Source: a virus
Taxonomy: Duplodnaviria; Heunggongvirae; Uroviricota; Caudoviricetes
IMG/VR virus record: IMGVR_UViG_2529292829_000011
Strand: one strand, 5' to 3'
Length of the DNA stretch: 8,710 bases
The position numbers and the translations under genes are program-made. How positions within the stretch are numbered: position 1 is the stretch's first letter; each line of letters opens with the position of its first letter. A model generated the notes under the pieces. It was given only the letters and a program-made list of their open reading frames with translations, was not told the origin of the DNA and made no database searches. Below, in pieces: positions 445 to 8,710 of the stretch.

Positions 445-3400
445 ATGGGTAAAGGAAGCAGTAAGGGGCATACCCCGCGCGAAGCGAAGGACAACCTGAA
501 GTCCACGCAGTTGCTGAGTGTGATCGATGCCATCAGCGAAGGGCCGGTTGAAGGTCCGGTGGATGGATTAAAAAGCGTGCTGCTGAACAGTACGCCGGTG
601 CTGGACACTGAGGGGAATACCAACATCGCCGGTGTCACGGTGGTGTTCCGTGCCGGTGAGCAGGAGCAGACTCCGCCGGAGGGATTTGAATCCTCCGGCT
701 CCGAGACGGTGTTGGGTACGGAAGTGAAATACGACACGCCGATCACCCGCGCCATCACGTCGGCAAACATCGACCGACTGCGCTTTACCTTCGGTGTGCA
801 GGCACTGGTGGAAACCACCTCAAAGGGGGACCGGAATCCGTCGGAAGTCCGCCTGCTGGTTCAGATACAACGTAACGGTGGCTGGGTGACGGAAAAAGAC
901 ATCACCATTAAGGGCAAAACCACCTCGCAGTATCTGGCCTCGGTGGTGGTGGATAACCTGCCGCCGCGCCCGTTTAATATCCGGATGCGCAGGATGACGC
1001 CGGACAGCACCACAGACCAGCTGCAGAACAAAACGCTCTGGTCGTCATACACCGAAATCATCGATGTGAAACAGTGCTACCCGAACACGGCACTGGTCGG
1101 CGTGCAGGTGGACTCGGAGCAGTTCGGCAGCCAGCAGGTGAGCCGTAATTATCATCTTCGCGGGCGCATTCTGCAGGTGCCGTCGAACTATAACCCGCAG
1201 ACGCGGCAATACAGCGGTATCTGGGACGGAACGTTTAAGCCAGCATACAGCAAAACATGGCCTGGTGTCTGTGGGATATGCTGACCCATCCCGCTACGGC
1301 ATGGGGAAACGTCTTGGTGCGGCGGATGTGGACAAATGGGCGCTGTATGTCATCGGCCAGTACTGCGACCAGTCAGTGCCGGACGGCTTTGGCGGCACGG
1401 AGCCGCGCATCACCTGTAATGCGTACCTGACCACACAGCGCAAGGCGTGGGATGTGCTCAGTGATTTCTGCTCGCGATGCGCTGTATGCGGTATGGAACG
1501 GGCAGACGCTGACGTTCGTGCAGGACCGACCGTCGGATAAGGTGTGGCCTATAACCGCAGTAATGTGGTGATGCCGGATGATGGGCGCCGTTCCGCTACA
1601 GTTCAGCGCCCTGAAGGACCGCCATAATGCCGTTGAGGTGAACTGGATTGACCCGATAACGGCTGGGAGACGGCGACAGAGCTTGTGAGAACGCAGGCCA
1701 TTGCCCGTTACGGTCGTAACGTCACGAAGATGGATGCCTTTGGCTGTACCAGCCGGGGGCAGGCACACCGCGCCGGGCTGTGGCTGATTAAAACGGAACT
1801 GCTGGAAACGCAGACCGTGGACTTCAGCGTGGGTGCGGAAGGGCTTCGCCATGTACCGGGCGATGTCATTGAAATCTGCGATGATGACTATGCCGGTATC
1901 AGCACCGGTGGGCGCGTGCTGGCGGTGAACAGCCAGACCCGGACGCTGACGCTCGACCGTGAAATCACGCTGCCATCCTCCGGTACCACGCTGATAAGCC
2001 TGGTTGACGGCAGGGATCCGGTCAGCGTGGAGGTCAGTCCGTCACCGACGGCGTGAAGGTAAAGTGAGCCGTGTTCCTGACGGGTTGCGAATACAGCGTT
2101 GGGGGCTGAAGTGCCGACGTGCGCCAGCGCTGTTCCGCTGCGTGAGTATCCGTGAGAACGACGACGGCACGTATGCCATCACCGCCGTGCAGCATGTCCG
2201 GAAAAAGAGCCATCGTGGATAACGGGGCGCACTTTGACGGCGACCAGAGCGGCACGGTGAATGGTGTCACGCCGCCAGCGGTGCAGCACTGACGCGAAGT
2301 CACCGCAGACAGCGGGGAATATCAGGTGCTGGCCGTGGGACACGCCGAAGGTGGTGAAGGGCGTGAGCTTCCTGCTTCGCCTGACCGTAGCAGCGGATGA
2401 CGGCCGTGAGCGGCTGGTCAGCACGGCCCGGACGACGGAAACCACTTACCGCTTCACACAACTGGCTCTGGGGAACTACAGGCTGACAGTCCGGGCAGTA
2501 AATGCGTGGGGGCAGCAGGGCGATCCTGCACCACCACCTTCCGGATTAACGCACCTGCAAAACCCGCCACCATTGAGCTGACGCCGGGGTATTTTCAGAT
2601 AACGGCGGTCCCGCGTCTTGCGGTGTATGACCCGACGGTACAGTTTGAATTCTGGTTCTCAGAAAAACGCATCACGAACACAGCACAGGTGGAAAAATCT
2701 GCCCGTTATCTGGGGGCCGGCAGTCAGTGGACTGTCCAGGGGAGCCGGATTAAGCCGGGGACGGATTTCTGGTTTTACGTGCGAAGCGTCAACCTGGTGG
2801 GAAAATCTGCTTTTGTGGAAGCCAGCGGGCAGCCCAGCAATGATGGTGAAGGGTATCTGGAAATTTTCCGGGGGCTGATAGATGAGACGCTTCTTGGTCA
2901 GGCACTGAAAGAGCGCATTGATGCTTCAGCGCTGCGTACGGAGGTCACGCAACTGGAAGAAGACATCCGTCAGCGGATGGACACGGATATCGCAGAAGTG
3001 ACCCGGAAAATCGGGAAGGCGGAAAACACTCTCACGCAGCTGGTTGCGAAAAAGAATGAGGACCAGGCACTGGCCATCGCGCAGGTGAACCAGAAAGTGG
3101 ACCGGGTGAGCAGTGAAATCTCACAGACTGTCAGCCAGGGGCAGTCAGAAAACGCCCGACAGATAGCACAGGTTCGCCAGTACGTGGATAAAAAAGGGAG
3201 TGAAATTACCTCGACCACGGATAAAAAGCTGGGTGATCAGGCCGTGACCATACAGCAAATCCAGCGGGTTCAGTCAGACACGCGCAATGAGCTGAATGCC
3301 ATGTATATGCTGAAGGTGCAGAAAACAAAAAACGGTATTCCCTATGTGGCCGGGATTGGGGCGGGGATTGAGGATGTTGATGGTCAGACCCTGAGTAACA

Positions 3401-4116
3401 TTCTGCTGCAGGCCGATCGCATTGCAATGATTACCCCGGAGAACGGTAACCCCACGCCGCTGTTTGTGGCGCAGGGGAATCAGCTGTTCATGAACGACGT
3501 GTTCCTGAAGCGACTGTTTGCGGTGAGCATCACGTCATCCGGTAATCCTCCGGCATTTTCCCTGACACCGGACGGGCGGCTGACGGCGAGAAATGCTGAT
3601 ATCAGCGGTAACGTTAATGCGAATTCCGGGACGCTCAACAACGTCACGATTAATCAGAACTGCCGGATCCTTGGAAAACTGTCAGCCAGCCATATTGAAG
3701 GCGATATTGTCAAAACGGTGGGTAAGGCTTTCCCGCGAAATGGAAGTTATGCCAGTGGCACGATAACCGTCACGGTTTATGATGATCAGGGATTCGACCG
3801 GCAGATTATCATTCCGCCGGTATTATTTCGTGGTACGAAACACCAGAATTTCAACAGTCATAACCAACAGTCATACTGGTATTCAACCTGTAAGCTGCAG
3901 GTACTGAAGAACGGACAGGAAATCTTTCAGCAACCCGCGACGGATGTCAGCAGGGTATTTTCATCCGTCATTGATATGCCTGCCGGACACGGCCATGTCA
4001 CCCTGACTTTCAATGTTTCTTCATATGGTGCTAATAAGTGGACGCCAACGACCAGTATCAGCGACCTTCTTGTTATTGTGATGAAGAAATCTACAGCCGG
4101 TATCAGTATCAGTTGA
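445..4116 (+). pseudogene. J: Host specificity protein J (tail tip / central tail fibre), disrupted by multiple frameshifts
   Basis: ATG at 445 is preceded by GAGG. The first 280 aa (frame 1, 445-1284) are near-identical to my recollection of the lambda J N-terminus (MGKGSSKGHTPREAKDNLKSTQLLSVIDAISEGP...). The J-like reading then continues in frame 2 (1265-1540, 1685-2056), frame 3 (2004-2222), frame 2 (2261-2581) and finally frame 1 (2506-4116, 536 aa, ending ...[15 protein letters not shown]). Codon-level reading shows short stretches in other frames in between (e.g. MAWCLWDMLTHP in frame 3 at 1257-1292). The 3672-nt span would encode about 1220 aa if intact. Confidence 0.85.
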
Positions 4117-4134
4117 ATTTTATAACCCCAATAC

Positions 4135-4162
4135 GGGCGCCAGAAATGGCGCCTTTTTTATT
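4135..4162 (+). terminator. Rho-independent terminator-like hairpin downstream of J
   Basis: GGCGCC (4136-4141), loop AGAAAT, GGCGCC (4148-4153), a perfect 6-bp GC stem followed directly by TTTTTTATT (4154-4162). Orientation fits + strand transcription; the reverse complement has no trailing T-run. Confidence 0.6.
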
Positions 4163-4183
4163 GCAGAAAAGCGAGAGGTAATT

Positions 4184-4783
4184 ATGCGTAAATTATGTGC
4201 TGTTATTCTGTCCGCAGTAGTCTGGCTGGTTGCCGCTGGTACGCCAGCGAGCGCAGCAGAACATCAGTCCACGCTGAGCGCGGGGTATCTTCATGCCCGT
4301 ACGAACGCTCCCGGTAGTGATGATCTGAACGGGATTAACGTGAAATACCGTTATGAGTTTACGGACATGCTGGGTGTTGTGACGTCATTCAGTTATGCCA
4401 ATGCCAAAGATGAGCAAAAAACGCATTACAGCGATACCCGCTGGCATGAGGATTCCGTGCGTAACCGCGGGTTCAGTGTGATGGCGGGGCCGTCTGTTCG
4501 CGTGAATGAATGGTTCAGCGCGTATGCGATGGCGGGTATGGCTTACAGCCGTGTGTCGACTTTCTCCGGGGATTATATCCGCGTAACTGACAACAAGGGG
4601 AAAACGCACGATGTGCTGACCGGAAGTGATGACGGTCGCCACAGCAACACGTCTCTGGCGTGGGGAGCTGGCGTGCAGTTTAACCCGACCGAATCCGTGG
4701 CCATTGATATTGCTTATGAAGTCTCCGGCAGTGGCGACTGGCGCACTGACGGTTTCATCGTGGGTGTCGGTTATAAGTTCTGA
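4184..4783 (+). CDS. lom: Lom outer-membrane beta-barrel protein (Ail/Lom/OmpX family), lysogenic-conversion-type moron
   Basis: 199-aa ORF with GAGAGG 7-12 nt upstream of the ATG. N-terminus is a signal peptide (MRKLCAVILSAVVWLVAAGTPASA/AEHQ). Near-identical over its length to my recollection of lambda Lom (STLSAGYLHA.TNAPGSDDLNGINVKYRYEFTD...SVMAGPSVRVNEWFSAYAMAG...GFIVGVGYKF), with a C-terminal aromatic residue typical of OM beta-barrels. Confidence 0.93.
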   Translation: MRKLCAVILSAVVWLVAAGTPASAAEHQSTLSAGYLHARTNAPGSDDLNGINVKYRYEFTDMLGVVTSFSYANAKDEQKTHYSDTRWHEDSVRNRGFSVMAGPSVRVNEWFSAYAMAGMAYSRVSTFSGDYIRVTDNKGKTHDVLTGSDDGRHSNTSLAWGAGVQFNPTESVAIDIAYEVSGSGDWRTDGFIVGVGYKF

Positions 4784-4814
4784 TTAGCCAGGTAACACAG
4801 TGTTATGACAGCAT

Positions 4815-4840
4815 GCCTGTTCAATCAGGCGGGCTTTTTT
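4815..4840 (+). terminator. Weak terminator-like hairpin downstream of lom
   Basis: GCCTG (4815-4819), loop TTCAAT, CAGGC (4826-4830), then GGGCTTTTTT (4831-4840). Only a 5-bp stem, with 4 nt between stem and T-run, so modest. Confidence 0.35.
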
Positions 4841-4851
4841 GTGGGGTGAAT

Positions 4852-7800
4852 ATGGCAGTAAAGATTTCAGGTGTACTGAAAGATGGGGCGGGTAAACCTG
4901 TCGTAAATTGTGCGATTGAACTGCGGGCCAGAAGAACCAGCCCGACCGTTGTGGCGCACGTTGTCGCCACTTGTGTGACGGACAATAACGGTGCTTATGT
5001 GATTGAGGCTGAGCCGGGGTATTACGAGGTTGCGCTTCACCGTAACGGCTGGCAGCCAACCCGTGTCGGGGATATTTATGTGGCACCGACTGATGCACCG
5101 GGGACACTGAATGCGTTTCTGGATGCACCAAAGGATAGTGATTTACGTCCGGAGGTGATGAAGCGCTTTGAGGAAATGGTGGATGCGGTTGCCCGGCAGT
5201 CGGAGCAGGTCACCAATGATCGTGAAAGGGCAGAGGCGGTAGCGGAGGCAGCAACAAACGCAGCGAACTCTGCTCTTGACAGTAAAAATAAGGCAGAAGA
5301 TCTAAAAAATAAGGCACAGCAAAATGCCGAAGCCGCTGCAGAAAGCGAACGACAGGCCGGGCAACATGTCGCTGATGCGCAGAAGATTAAGGGGGATTGC
5401 CAGACGCTGGCGGATAACGTACAGCAGAATGCAGAATCCGTTGCCGAAGATAAAAAGCAGGTGGCACAGCTGGCATCATCTGCCACACAGGATGCGGCCA
5501 GCGCAGAGCAGGCTGTCAAGGATGCTGACTCGATAGTCCGGAAAGCGGTCGATAAACTCGGTGAAGCTGCAACGCTGACCGGCGAGGCAAAAGCCAGCGC
5601 CGAAGCGGCAGCAAAAAGCGAACAGAACGCGAAACAGCACAGGGACGAGGCGCAACGGATAGTTGATGACCTGAAGGGAAGCAATGCTTCCACGACAGAA
5701 AAAGGCCTGGTGCAACTCTGTAGTGATACGGACAACGACAGCGAAGAACTGGCAGCCACACCGAAGGCCGTCAAAACCGTCATGGACGAGACGAAAACAA
5801 AAGCGCCGCTGGACAGCCCGGCATTCACCGGCACGCCCACCACACCAACCCCACCGGACGATGCTGCCGGTCTGGAAACAGCGAACGCGGCATTTGTCCG
5901 CAAACTGCTCGCTGCACTGGTTGACTCGTCACCGGAGGCCCTGGACACGCTGAACGAGCTGGCAGCGGCGCTGGGAAATGACCCGAATTTTGCGACGACA
6001 GTCACCAAAGCACTGGCAGGGAAACAGCCACTCAGTGACGTGTTAACCGCAATCAGTAATCTGGAAGAACGGGCAGATAATCTTCTGTGCTTTAATCAGG
6101 ACGGAAATGCTTCACTGTCTCCACTGTCAGAAAAAGCCCGGTCACTGCTGGCACAGGCCACAGTGGAAGCTATGCGCAATGAGCTTGAGCTGAAAAGCGC
6201 AGCGGTAATGGATATTCAGACAGACATTCACGACAGCACGAAAGGCCGCATTGCGCTTCCCGGTGCGTATGGTTACGGAATGACGGACGCCGGAGCGCGT
6301 TCAATTATTGCCAGCGATATGGCGACTGTAGCCAGAACCGCTCACAACCTGCACCCGGGACGCTATTACACCTTTGCCACACGAACGGAAGAAACAACCG
6401 GGATAACAGAAATTATCTGGCTGGATAATGGCCGGGCCGACAAAACCAGCCAGACAGCAACAAAGCTGGTTCTGTTTTTTGGAAAAGACGGACGGATTCT
6501 TATGACCGTTCGTGGCGATAATATCTCCGCCCCGGTCACCTGGACGAATCTGACGCCACAACTTGGCAATGCAGCACAGAAGGATGCGCAGGAGAATATT
6601 TACGACCGCACCGAAGGCCGTCTGGCGATTCCCGGCATGTTTGGATTCGGGAAAGTATTTTTCATCGGCGACAGGACCGAGTTTAAAACAGAGGCCGATT
6701 TTCTCCGCTGGGTAAAAACGGCAAATCCCGGACGCTATGCCGTTTATGCAGATACAAATGCGGTAATACAGGGCGTGCTGTTCAAGGGTACCGTTGAAAT
6801 TATCTGGCCGGAACCTCAAATCAGCCATGATACGGCATATGTGGCCAAAATCATTATTTTTTACGGTATTAACGGTCATATTTATTACAATCGCTACTGG
6901 ACTACCGGAGGTGGTTATCTGGTTGGCTGGGAAAACCTGAAAGTCAACGAGGCTTCACTCCGGGCACTGATTGAAACCCGAGCGCCACTGAACAGTCCGG
7001 CACTGACCGGAACGCCGTCCACGCCAACACCACCGGATGATGCAGCAGGTAATGAAATAGCCAATGCGGCGTTTGTCCGCAAACTGCTCGCCACGCTGGT
7101 TGGCTCATCACCGGAAGCCCTGGACACGCTGAACGAGCTGGCAGCGGCACTGGGCAATGACCCGAACTTTGCGACAACCGTCACTAATGCACTGGCAGGG
7201 AAACAGCCGCTTAATGACGTGTTAACGGCTGTCAGCAAGATAACACCGGAAGAAAACACACTGCCCTATTTCAGTGCAGATGGCAGGATTTTACTGGCGC
7301 AGTTGTCAGAAAAAGCCCGCGCATTACTGGCACTGGACACACCTGAAGCCATGCGCACGGAGCTTGAACTGAAAGCGGCTGCGACGATGGAACCCCAGAG
7401 CGATATCCGCGACCGCACACCGGGCAGACTGGCACTGTCCGGCATGCATGGATTCGGTCAGGCATTCACCAGTGCCGACGCTCTGACATTTAACGGGCAG
7501 GCCGATTTTGTTGAATGGCTGAAAAAGGCCGCCCCGGGGCGTTATGCGGTCAGTATTGCGGACTCTTCCATGCTGCTGGTTGGCACCAAGAAATTTAACG
7601 GCACCATTGATGTGATGTGGTCGCCCTTTGATAACGATGAGTCGGACACAATACGAAAATTCAAAACACTGCTGTGTTTTAACCAGTATTACGAAGGTGA
7701 GCATAGTATTCATTTCCTGACTTACCGCTTTAGTGGAAACAACTGGAATGCAACAGTAAGCCCTGTCATTTACGACGGCGATTCGCTGGCGTTCTTACTG

Positions 7801-8112
7801 TCCCGGACAGCAGGCTCAGGCTCATATTTCAAATACCCGGCAGTGGGTGTTCCAGTGCTGGCTGTTTATCGCGGAACAACTTCCGGGGATAAAGAAATCA
7901 ATATTGGCCTGGGTGATGTGGTGCAGGGGTCACAACTGGGCGGAGTTAATCTTTCGTGCTTAATATCTTCTGCTGGGGTTGGCTCCTACAATTCCGCACC
8001 GAGTGCAGGAGCTACAGGGTACACTTTCCCGGGGCGTTATATGGCGCTATCCGGGGTCAGGGACTCTAAAGGAATAACCGGTCGTATCTGCCTGTTTGTG
8101 CGCATCGAGTAA
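4852..8112 (+). CDS. stf: Side tail fibre protein (Stf-like), long modular variant
   Basis: Frame 1 ORF 4813-8112. I prefer the ATG at 4852 (MAVKISGVLKDGAGKPV...), because the lambda Stf N-terminus as I recall it begins MAVKISGVLKDG and a G-rich stretch precedes it. The ATG at 4813 lies inside the lom terminator hairpin. The N-terminal ~110 aa are lambda-Stf-like, followed by an Ala/Glu/Lys/Gln-rich coiled coil (about 5200-5700) and two conserved tail-fibre boxes (KAPLDSPAFTGTPTTPTPPDDAAG... and RAPLNSPALTGTPSTPTPPDDAAG...), each followed by ...ALDTLNELAAALGNDPNFATTVT.ALAGKQPL. Confidence 0.9.
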   Translation: MAVKISGVLKDGAGKPVVNCAIELRARRTSPTVVAHVVATCVTDNNGAYVIEAEPGYYEVALHRNGWQPTRVGDIYVAPTDAPGTLNAFLDAPKDSDLRPEVMKRFEEMVDAVARQSEQVTNDRERAEAVAEAATNAANSALDSKNKAEDLKNKAQQNAEAAAESERQAGQHVADAQKIKGDCQTLADNVQQNAESVAEDKKQVAQLASSATQDAASAEQAVKDADSIVRKAVDKLGEAATLTGEAKASAEAAAKSEQNAKQHRDEAQRIVDDLKGSNASTTEKGLVQLCSDTDNDSEELAATPKAVKTVMDETKTKAPLDSPAFTGTPTTPTPPDDAAGLETANAAFVRKLLAALVDSSPEALDTLNELAAALGNDPNFATTVTKALAGKQPLSDVLTAISNLEERADNLLCFNQDGNASLSPLSEKARSLLAQATVEAMRNELELKSAAVMDIQTDIHDSTKGRIALPGAYGYGMTDAGARSIIASDMATVARTAHNLHPGRYYTFATRTEETTGITEIIWLDNGRADKTSQTATKLVLFFGKDGRILMTVRGDNISAPVTWTNLTPQLGNAAQKDAQENIYDRTEGRLAIPGMFGFGKVFFIGDRTEFKTEADFLRWVKTANPGRYAVYADTNAVIQGVLFKGTVEIIWPEPQISHDTAYVAKIIIFYGINGHIYYNRYWTTGGGYLVGWENLKVNEASLRALIETRAPLNSPALTGTPSTPTPPDDAAGNEIANAAFVRKLLATLVGSSPEALDTLNELAAALGNDPNFATTVTNALAGKQPLNDVLTAVSKITPEENTLPYFSADGRILLAQLSEKARALLALDTPEAMRTELELKAAATMEPQSDIRDRTPGRLALSGMHGFGQAFTSADALTFNGQADFVEWLKKAAPGRYAVSIADSSMLLVGTKKFNGTIDVMWSPFDNDESDTIRKFKTLLCFNQYYEGEHSIHFLTYRFSGNNWNATVSPVIYDGDSLAFLLSRTAGSGSYFKYPAVGVPVLAVYRGTTSGDKEINIGLGDVVQGSQLGGVNLSCLISSAGVGSYNSAPSAGATGYTFPGRYMALSGVRDSKGITGRICLFVRIE
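5806..6290 (+). repeat. Intragenic direct repeat, copy 1 (conserved tail-fibre box module inside stf)
   Basis: About 480 nt that re-occur at 6985-7460 with high nucleotide similarity (by eye roughly 85% over the first 260 nt, including identical runs such as TTTGTCCGCAAACTGCTCGC and CCCTGGACACGCTGAACGAGCTGGCAGCGGC). Copy spacing is 1179 nt (393 codons), so the repeat is in frame. Confidence 0.8.
6985..7460 (+). repeat. Intragenic direct repeat, copy 2 (conserved tail-fibre box module inside stf)
   Basis: Second copy of the module described at 5806-6290; encodes APLNSPALTGTPSTPTPPDDAAGNEIANAAFVRKLLATLVGSSPEALDTLNELAAALGNDPNFATTVTNALAGKQPLNDVLTAV...SEKARALLA...EAMRTELELKAAATME. Confidence 0.8.
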
Positions 8113-8125
8113 CGGGGAATAAAAC

Positions 8126-8710
8126 ATGAAAATCAGAGCGGTAAAGGGCATCAGAAACGCCCATTATCTTGAAAATGGTGCGGTTGACTGCGAGGTGTTA
8201 TTTGAAGGTGAAACGGAATTCGTCCCGTATACCGCCATGCAGGATGATACCGCACCGACAGGCCAGCGCATCTGGGAAGAGTTGCAGAACGGCAAATGGG
8301 GCGAAATCGCCCCTTTCACTGTCACGCCGGAACTTATCGCCGCGGCGAAGGATGCCAAAAAGCAGGAAATCGAGGCATGGCGCACAGAACAGGAAGCACT
8401 GCCGTTCACCTTTGAATGGAACGGTCGCACCTGGAACGCTGGCCCCGACTCAATGGCCCGTCTTTATCCGGTAGTAATGGCGGCGAAATCCGATACGGCA
8501 CGAACCGCCCTTGCATGGGGTGATGCCGATAATCAACAGGTGAAACTGTCAATGCCGGAACTGGAAGAACTGGCGGCAGCAATGGCGCAGGCGCAGCTCG
8601 ATCGCAATGACGAGATTTATCGACGTCAGCGGGAGATGAAGGAAGAACTGAATAATCTGGAGGATTTGGGTTCAATCAGGAAACTGGTCGTTAGCTCAGA
8701 AAAACCTTGA
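8126..8710 (+). CDS. Tail-fibre-associated protein of uncertain function (occupies the tfa position; not a canonical lambda Tfa)
   Basis: Complete 194-aa ORF starting 13 nt after the stf stop, with its TGA at 8708-8710, the last three bases of the window. Same length and position as lambda tfa, but the translation does not resemble lambda Tfa as I recall it and lacks the C-terminal W..Y..L..RVD....WP motif of that chaperone family. The C-terminal half is acidic and helix-prone (ELEELAAAMAQAQLDRNDEIYRRQREMKEELNNLEDL). It reminds me of a family of unknown function (DUF4376-type) seen next to enterobacterial prophage fibre genes, but I cannot confirm that without a search. Confidence 0.6.
   Translation: MKIRAVKGIRNAHYLENGAVDCEVLFEGETEFVPYTAMQDDTAPTGQRIWEELQNGKWGEIAPFTVTPELIAAAKDAKKQEIEAWRTEQEALPFTFEWNGRTWNAGPDSMARLYPVVMAAKSDTARTALAWGDADNQQVKLSMPELEELAAAMAQAQLDRNDEIYRRQREMKEELNNLEDLGSIRKLVVSSEKP

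Follow-up and report, generated by a model that had tools for sequence, protein, structure and literature searches.

Gp27 of Alteromonas phage V22 is a proven intermolecular tail fibre chaperone whose sole recognisable feature is a C-terminal DUF4376 domain: the gp26 fibre of V22 binds cells only if it is co-expressed with gp27, and gp27 is absent from the final complex (PMC7289586). In phage A5, gp9 co-purifies with its fibre, and 3:3 trimeric "transient caps" have been proposed, likened to the intramolecular chaperone domains of T5 and K1F (PMC10579305). The function of the Campylobacter CJIE1 H-fibre requires the downstream DUF4376 gene (PMC7882524), and the partners of this fibre and of the Fletchervirus receptor-binding proteins have in common a C-terminal DUF4376 domain, a gene placed directly after the fibre gene and a need for co-expression (PMC7882524, PMC10877375). 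Here we describe a gene in viral DNA of the Caudoviricetes, at 8126..8710 (+ strand) in a stretch of 8,710 nucleotides (nt) (IMG/VR record IMGVR_UViG_2529292829_000011), which at its full length is called the window below. The window, the tail-tip end of an E. coli lambda-like prophage, has the lambda gene order J-lom-stf-tfa with a DUF4376-family open reading frame (ORF) in the place of tfa. This ORF of 194 amino acids (aa), recognised from the ORF list, Pfam, PHROG and NCBI, starts with the ATG at 8126 and ends with the TGA at 8708-8710, the final three bases of the window, and is predicted to encode a dedicated chaperone for the side tail fibre protein, Stf. We think it very probable that its product is a DUF4376-class intermolecular chaperone for tail fibres, doing for this Stf the job of Tfa from outside the Caudo_TAP family.

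That the ORF is a real gene, and not a chance frame, is clear because an identical protein is present in NCBI and many related clusters exist. The identical protein, "DUF4376 domain-containing protein [Escherichia coli]", has been deposited many times and is found on 34 contigs. At 90% identity the relatives fall into 1801 clusters, for which E. coli is the main source, E. marmotae, Citrobacter and Salmonella being named as well, and at 50% identity into 264 representatives. Relatives 39-40% identical to the ORF product, annotated as ORF-191A/C/D/E, occur in the P-EibA/C/D/E prophages of E. coli ECOR-9 (AF151091, AF151674-6), whose short records are named for the eib immunoglobulin-binding protein genes. 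DNA similar to the cassette is present in about 180 of 5426 complete E. coli genomes.

An earlier note on this DNA had claimed that the ORF was not a canonical Tfa, since the C-terminal motif of that group (W..Y..L..RVD, then WP) was missing and the protein ended in an acidic helical segment instead, and it had proposed a Pfam search for Caudo_TAP and DUF4376 as a check. Pfam returned DUF4376 (PF14301) over aa 73-177 of 194 (8342..8656, + strand) at 61.1 bits against a cut-off of 25, and Caudo_TAP (PF02413) was not listed for the ORF at E <= 1; in the same kind of scan, lambda Tfa scored 147.6 bits and the Tfa proteins of phiP27 and E. coli A36 scored 78-81 bits on Caudo_TAP. BLASTP of the ORF product against lambda Tfa, which is also 194 aa long, found no similarity (E 0.46), and hhalign comparison of 79 DUF4376 with 33 Caudo_TAP proteins gave probabilities of just 1.4% and 0.3%. 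With neither a Pfam match nor similarity by BLASTP or between profiles, membership of Caudo_TAP was rejected. DUF4376 has been equated with the C-terminus of TfaMu (PMC7882524, PMC10877375), an equation for which the same profile comparison gives no support. The tail of the protein, when read directly (...SIRKLVVSSEKP), contains neither W..Y..L..RVD nor WP, and it ends in ...EIYRRQREMKEELNNLEDLGSIRKLVVSSEKP with no sign of the WP..P that closes the Caudo_TAP motif, the Caudo_TAP proteins from the fetched loci terminating in ...Y.AI.WP..P. The description of an acidic helical C-terminus was also accurate, as residues 142-194 hold 12 D/E versus 8 K/R (counted from the sequence), giving a net acidic segment, and are modelled as helices at 143-177 and 181-186.

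The assignment to DUF4376 drew support from several directions. The protein matched PHROG 1141 with an E value of 7.7e-90, and DUF4376 was hit by all 79 diverse relatives in our alignment (A1), among which 16 family positions are nearly invariant; the ORF keeps 14 of these, including the signature I..RQR.MK, the exceptions being D104 (N in the ORF) and P126 (R). When the A1 family profile was compared with V22 gp27 by hhalign, the probability was 96.9% (E 1.5e-10, 117 columns). As in known DUF4376 chaperones, the PF14301 domain lies in the C-terminal half of a protein of ~160-250 aa, and with Caudo_TAP genes the ORF shares the position of a small gene directly after a tail fibre gene. NCBIfam gave no match, and a search of the PDB by sequence, from the single protein or from the 79-member profile, gave nothing usable. 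The marks of a Peptidase_S74-type intramolecular chaperone that were looked for (fusion to the fibre C-terminus, autoproteolysis, a match to PF13884) were not found. For DUF4376 proteins and the Peptidase_S74 domains of T5 pb1 and K1F endosialidase, a common shape (a "helical core plus beta-hairpin tentacle") and a common task, as a cap that trimerises the fibre at its distal end, have been proposed (PMC10579305). A tail of the form [YF]x[VIP]GW, a criterion of our own, closes 68 of 78 diverse DUF4376 members (GWP in 35 of them). It is absent from the E. coli clade to which the ORF belongs, having been lost there.

The AlphaFold2 model of the protein (mean predicted local distance difference test score, pLDDT, 95.7; predicted template modelling score, pTM, 0.82) divides it into two parts. 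The N-terminal domain, aa ~1-60 (8126..8305, + strand; pLDDT 92-98), consists of strands at 6-14, 20-26 and 33-37 and a helix at 44-54. The DUF4376 region is made up of a helix (68-91), a hairpin (94-105), a second helix (107-120), a second hairpin (129-141) and a long helix (143-177), the last of which bears the family signature, and as modelled it would fit the description of DUF4376 chaperones as a helical body with protruding beta-hairpin(s). A fold search of BFVD produced 45 matches at E <= 1e-3, of which most of the named ones were DUF4376 proteins, and none of the best 50 matches was labelled Caudo_TAP. The N-domain is predicted to be a docking module specific for the fibre tip, and the DUF4376 domain a generic oligomerisation or assembly module. 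An arrangement of this kind has been solved for the gp24-gp25 complex of myocyanophage Pam3, in which the variable N-domain of gp25 grips the fibre and its conserved helical C-domain forms a trimer (PMC9608196). It is this architecture, a trimer with a core of C-terminal helices and N-terminal beta domains reaching up to the fibre tip, that we infer for the ORF product, even though Pam3 gp25 was reported to resemble TfaMu-type C-domains and not DUF4376 (PMC9608196), and no match in sequence or fold was found between gp25 and the ORF.

The members of the Caudo_TAP family (lambda Tfa, Mu U or TfaMu, P2 G) are likewise built from a fibre-specific N-domain and a conserved helical C-domain, and in the summary of North et al. 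2019 given in PMC9608196 the conserved C-domain of Tfa is proposed to drive trimerisation. At ~110 aa, and with two hairpins, the C-domain of the DUF4376 type exceeds the two-helix end of Tfa (~60 aa) in size. V22 gp27, which as fetched is 195 aa long, scores 76 bits on DUF4376 and is encoded 12 nt after its fibre gene, resembles the ORF product along with A5 gp9 in size (~195 aa), in its C-terminal DUF4376 domain, in a variable N-terminal part and in its place 12-13 nt after the fibre. Their cassette is common to phages of different morphology, as that of the ORF is to lambda-like and baseplate-gene prophages. The proteins differ in that there is no pairwise similarity at the level of BLAST and their N-domains and client fibres are unrelated; the ORF also has an E. 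coli host, a fibre with a lambda-type N-terminus and no GW(P) tail. The Campylobacter and Fletchervirus partners, for which hybrid N/C combinations have been reported as in the family of the ORF (PMC7882524, PMC10877375), come from a distant host and serve a different type of fibre.

Evidence on what the gene does also came from the company that it keeps. In the window, the stf stop codon (TAA, 8110-8112) is followed by a spacer of 13 nt (8113..8125, + strand), the length that the earlier note had given, which includes a Shine-Dalgarno-like GGGGA at 8114-8118, 7 nt 5' of the ATG; such tight spacing suggests that stf and the ORF may be co-transcribed and perhaps translationally coupled. We assembled 83 loci encoding close relatives of the ORF product (80 from IMG/VR, phiP27 and two E. 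coli chromosomes), and in 73 of them an upstream ORF of ~390-1110 aa (stop to stop) has its end at -8 to +14 nt relative to where the DUF4376 gene begins; of the others, all but one are cut by contig ends or were missed by this ORF rule. In that one, a 74th measured case (L069, ~5093-5911), an insertion sequence (IS)-type transposase, and not a fibre, precedes the DUF4376 gene across a gap of 83 nt, the fibre gene having been displaced or disrupted by the insertion. The first ten upstream proteins to be read were all fibres, with differing N-termini, and every upstream fibre read ends in a related tip motif, ...[PS]G.Y.[AGS]L..... followed by [LA]F[VIM]R... All 39 loci that belong to the fibre-tip clade of the window have a spacer of 13-14 nt. 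The converse also held: a reverse search found 37 loci encoding this Stf tip, and in all 34 of those with at least 300 nt beyond the fibre stop a DUF4376 ORF lay 13-14 nt past that stop. The gene is thus strictly linked to this Stf tip in both directions, which upholds the earlier view that a fibre-related role was likely, and the outcome of the co-occurrence analysis that had been proposed with it is the opposite of what would speak against a chaperone.

The same loci were informative as to whether another chaperone might serve these fibres. Lambda-like viral loci made up 18 of the 80 (J was present in all, lom in 17), and in these no Caudo_TAP gene was found in the ~6 kb fetched upstream or in the downstream DNA obtained. 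In 40 of the 80 viral loci a Caudo_TAP gene does occur just upstream of the DUF4376-linked fibre, creating two consecutive pairs of fibre and helper, as in phiP27, where fibre L54, Tfa L55, fibre L56 and DUF4376 L57 follow each other in that order; the layout is the same in E. coli A36, in a prophage with baseplate J/gp47-type genes. In E. coli 09-00049 there is no other chaperone candidate, because what comes after the DUF4376 gene is dinI and then chromosomal prfC.

Co-variation of the two domains with the fibre was examined across 71 loci, in which protein identities were set against the identity of the upstream fibre over its last 150 aa. The identity of the N-terminal 70 aa followed that of the fibre tip closely (Spearman 0.84, p 7e-20), with 39 loci high for both, 32 low for both and none mixed, whereas the identity of the DUF4376 domain did not track the tip (rho 0.16, p 0.18). 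The N-domain thus goes with the tip, and the C-domain is freely recombined. E. coli A36 provides an instructive case, as its pair is 92.7% identical to that of the window in the tip and 95.7% in the N-domain, and just 72.6% in the C-domain. The A36 tip and N-domain sit on a fibre with a different, non-lambda-type N-terminus, which indicates that the two move between fibres as a unit. In Aeromonas phage PX29 (GU396103/NC_023688) and Pseudomonas phage Itty13 (MW460249/NC_070969), short genes annotated as tail fibre or hypothetical match only aa 5-95 of the ORF, at 33-36% identity; the N-domain is therefore in circulation apart from the E. coli-type C-domain too. A fold match to the ORF model was obtained for the PX29 protein (E5DQP8) as well.

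Natural chimeras extend this modularity across the boundary between the two families, which exchange N-domains. One protein (P0171) shares 45% identity with the N-terminus of the phiP27 Tfa over its aa 1-96, to which a DUF4376 domain is joined, and 33% identity with the ORF in the window over its aa 91-226. In another (P0161), aa 17-143 match aa 12-134 of lambda Tfa (E 6e-18) and DUF4376 comes after, such that it carries the first two-thirds of a lambda-type Tfa joined to DUF4376. P0171 belongs to a Mu-like prophage (L084; GCA_009411145.1) with a fibre cassette at 3860-7994 arranged like the Mu G segment, in the order fibre (+), P0171 (+), a DUF4376/Caudo_TAP hybrid (-), an alternative fibre C-terminus (-) and a resolvase/invertase. 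The S-U/U'-S' layout of Mu is mirrored there, with P0171 and the hybrid in the U and U' positions on opposite strands, and the hybrid in the U' position exceeds both Pfam cut-offs (Caudo_TAP 31 bits, DUF4376 65 bits). In such chimeras the DUF4376 domain appears to be interchangeable with the conserved C-terminal domain of Tfa, and what it replaces is exactly the part of Tfa that bears the motif sought in vain in the ORF. The long DUF4376 proteins P0195 and P0265, in which DUF4376 is the sole Pfam domain shown, have N-terminal parts that by eye resemble repeated Tfa-type N-domains and not a fibre. A 315-aa protein (P0130) was considered as a fusion of fibre and chaperone, and was rejected when its N-terminal part proved to be a fragment of J (Ig-like region), fused directly to the C-terminal ~78 aa of a DUF4376 protein. 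It arose in a decayed prophage through a deletion that removed the remainder of J, lom, stf and the beginning of the chaperone gene.

The earlier note had left open whether the gene encoded a different class of chaperone or was unrelated cargo, and it is the former that stands: the 34/34 co-occurrence and the DUF4376 match, together with the experiments on V22 and CJIE1, support a different chaperone class. In outline, the protein would be made from the same late transcript as Stf and right after it, as the tight spacing suggests, and its small beta-rich N-domain (aa ~1-60) would bind the C-terminal tip domain of Stf. Its DUF4376 C-domain (aa ~66-180) would then self-associate, most likely as a trimer, aligning the C-termini of three Stf chains in register and allowing the trimeric fibre to fold from its distal end, after which the protein would leave, or linger as a tip cap. 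By analogy with its experimentally studied relatives, co-expression of the DUF4376 partner may be needed for a functional fibre. A number of observations weigh against this reading or call for caution in applying it here. The link to V22 gp27 is at the level of profiles only, with ~24% identity over the DUF4376 domain; all of the experiments on DUF4376 proteins come from non-enterobacterial members; and, having no GW(P) tail, the E. coli clade may behave differently from the rest of the family. Not every such fibre depends on its DUF4376 partner, since that of A5 can fold in the absence of gp9 (PMC10579305), and J is frameshifted in the window, so this particular prophage may make no virions.

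Of the competing explanations, the one to survive best is that the protein is a structural part of the tip and more than a transient helper in folding: it would remain on the finished fibre, capping its distal end or acting as the receptor-binding adhesin itself, in the manner of gp38 of T2 and T6 or of TfaMu. PHROG 1141 and several GenBank records do call the protein "tail fiber protein" or "side tail fiber", A5 gp9 and its fibre stay together in high-salt size-exclusion chromatography (PMC10579305), TfaMu is reported in PMC7289586 to stay bound at the Mu fibre tip, and the tight pairing of fibre and DUF4376 genes fits retention equally well. The database names, though, are automatic labels and not tests, and V22 gp27 comes off its fibre and forms no part of the active complex (PMC7289586). 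In addition, identity in the same tip clade is 87-100% for the N-terminal 70 aa of the protein, as against 57-99% for the fibre tip, and since an adhesin in contact with the receptor would be expected to vary more, the lower variation of the protein counts against that role. We regard this explanation as unlikely, while noting that retention on the virion is in itself compatible with a role as chaperone.

Much less probable still is that the ORF encodes a very diverged classical Tfa, DUF4376 being an expanded homologue of the Caudo_TAP C-terminal domain. The appeal of this idea lies in the gene position (J-lom-stf-X) and length of 194 aa that the ORF has in common with lambda Tfa, in the plan of variable N-domain and conserved helical C-domain seen in both families, and in the N-domains that they share through chimeras. 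Furthermore, the [YF]x[VIP]GW(P) ending of most DUF4376 proteins recalls the ...I.WP..P tail of Caudo_TAP; this likeness of the GW(P) tail to ...Y.AI.WP..P may reflect convergence or deep ancestry, and the profile comparison finds no homology. That comparison, between the 79 and the 33 proteins, is also an argument against a diverged Tfa, alongside the lack of a listed Caudo_TAP match in Pfam and of that label among the best 50 BFVD matches, and the ORF itself is without even the WP tail. Least credible of all, and rejected, is unrelated cargo (a moron, defence or virulence gene) at the end of the late operon, since, common as cargo genes are after stf/tfa in lambda-like prophages, and even though the gene comes last both here and in many predicted prophage contigs, with relatives present in the P-Eib prophages, it is contradicted by the two-way linkage to the fibre across lambda-like, Mu-like and other baseplate-carrying, contractile-tail-type prophages, by the co-variation of N-domain and fibre tip, by relatives in a Mu-like invertible fibre cassette, by the lack of any PADLOC defence match for the ORF and by homologues that are proven chaperones (PMC7289586).

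The remainder of the window is in keeping with the tail-tip end of a lambda-like phage. The 3' end of a tail assembly gene (115-384) is followed by J (445-4116; domains FNIII-A_GpJ, Ig_J_second, Phage_Tail_Tip and Ig_GpJ_C), lom (4184-4783; Ail_Lom, 410 bits) and stf (4813..8112, + strand), whose 1099-aa product matches phage_tail_N over aa 14-144 (144 bits), Phage_fiber_2 (56 bits) and PHROG 2636, tail fiber protein. Stf has a lambda-type N-terminus and a non-lambda distal end, and its last 150 aa (7660..8112 with the stop codon, + strand), presumably the client of the chaperone, end in ...FPGRYMALSG...ICLFVRIE; in Pfam, the last 250 aa matched no family significantly, the best being DUF6645, under its cut-off (E 0.063). 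Internal repeats explain why Stf is longer than relatives of 650-850 aa. Its gene contains a direct repeat of 265 nt, 84% identical, at 5795-6059 and 6974-7238 (spacing 1179 nt), and the protein has two copies of a APLDSPAFTGTP...GKQPL segment and three of a ~125-aa module beginning D.....GR.A..G..G.G. An antisense, Ala/Ser-rich ORF of 310 aa (5076-6008, - strand) lies within the part of stf encoding an Ala/Glu/Gln-rich coiled coil, and is most likely a compositional artefact of the repeats on the sense strand.

While stf and the DUF4376 gene are both intact, J is broken. Its match to an intact gpJ (L002) shifts frame near 1272-1292 and near 2035, the region of ~2035-2506 has just short ORFs in several frames, and 12 single-base indels relative to a 98%-identical relative (L003) are clustered at 2141-2528, so that either the prophage is decaying or the sequence there is of poor quality. 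In the prophage of E. coli 09-00049, J is annotated as full-length. Like many IMG/VR prophage contigs, the window stops at the stop codon of the DUF4376 gene or a few bases past it, and in E. coli 09-00049 no tail gene comes after it, the next genes being a dinI-like one and the chromosomal prfC; for these reasons we place the gene at or beside the prophage end.

The ORF is, then, an ordinary and under-annotated member of a chaperone class that was described in 2020-2023, and the finding opens no new biological question. What is new is modest, namely the complete two-way linkage to the Stf tip, the split between N- and C-domain in co-variation, the chimeras with Tfa N-domains and the loss of GWP in the enterobacterial members. 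A bolder proposal, which we hold to be doubtful, is that trimeric fibres have in DUF4376 a second "assembly engine" of independent origin, which phages swap freely with the Tfa C-domain while keeping the fibre-specific N-domain, and that the GW(P)-less enterobacterial clade behaves differently from the marine members, e.g., by leaving the protein as a cap over the Stf tip, where it would mask receptor binding or set its timing. If this were true, engineered fibre tips would follow a two-part pairing rule, in which the N-domain gives specificity and either C-domain gives assembly. Side tail fibres set host range, and their transfer between phages, to tailocins or into diagnostic reagents requires the right folding partner. 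In E. coli genomes that partner is labelled "DUF4376 domain-containing protein" or mislabelled "tail fiber protein", such that anyone cloning this class of Stf would miss it. The practical rule is that this fibre tip always brings this gene with it, the N-terminal 70 aa of the protein being matched to the tip.

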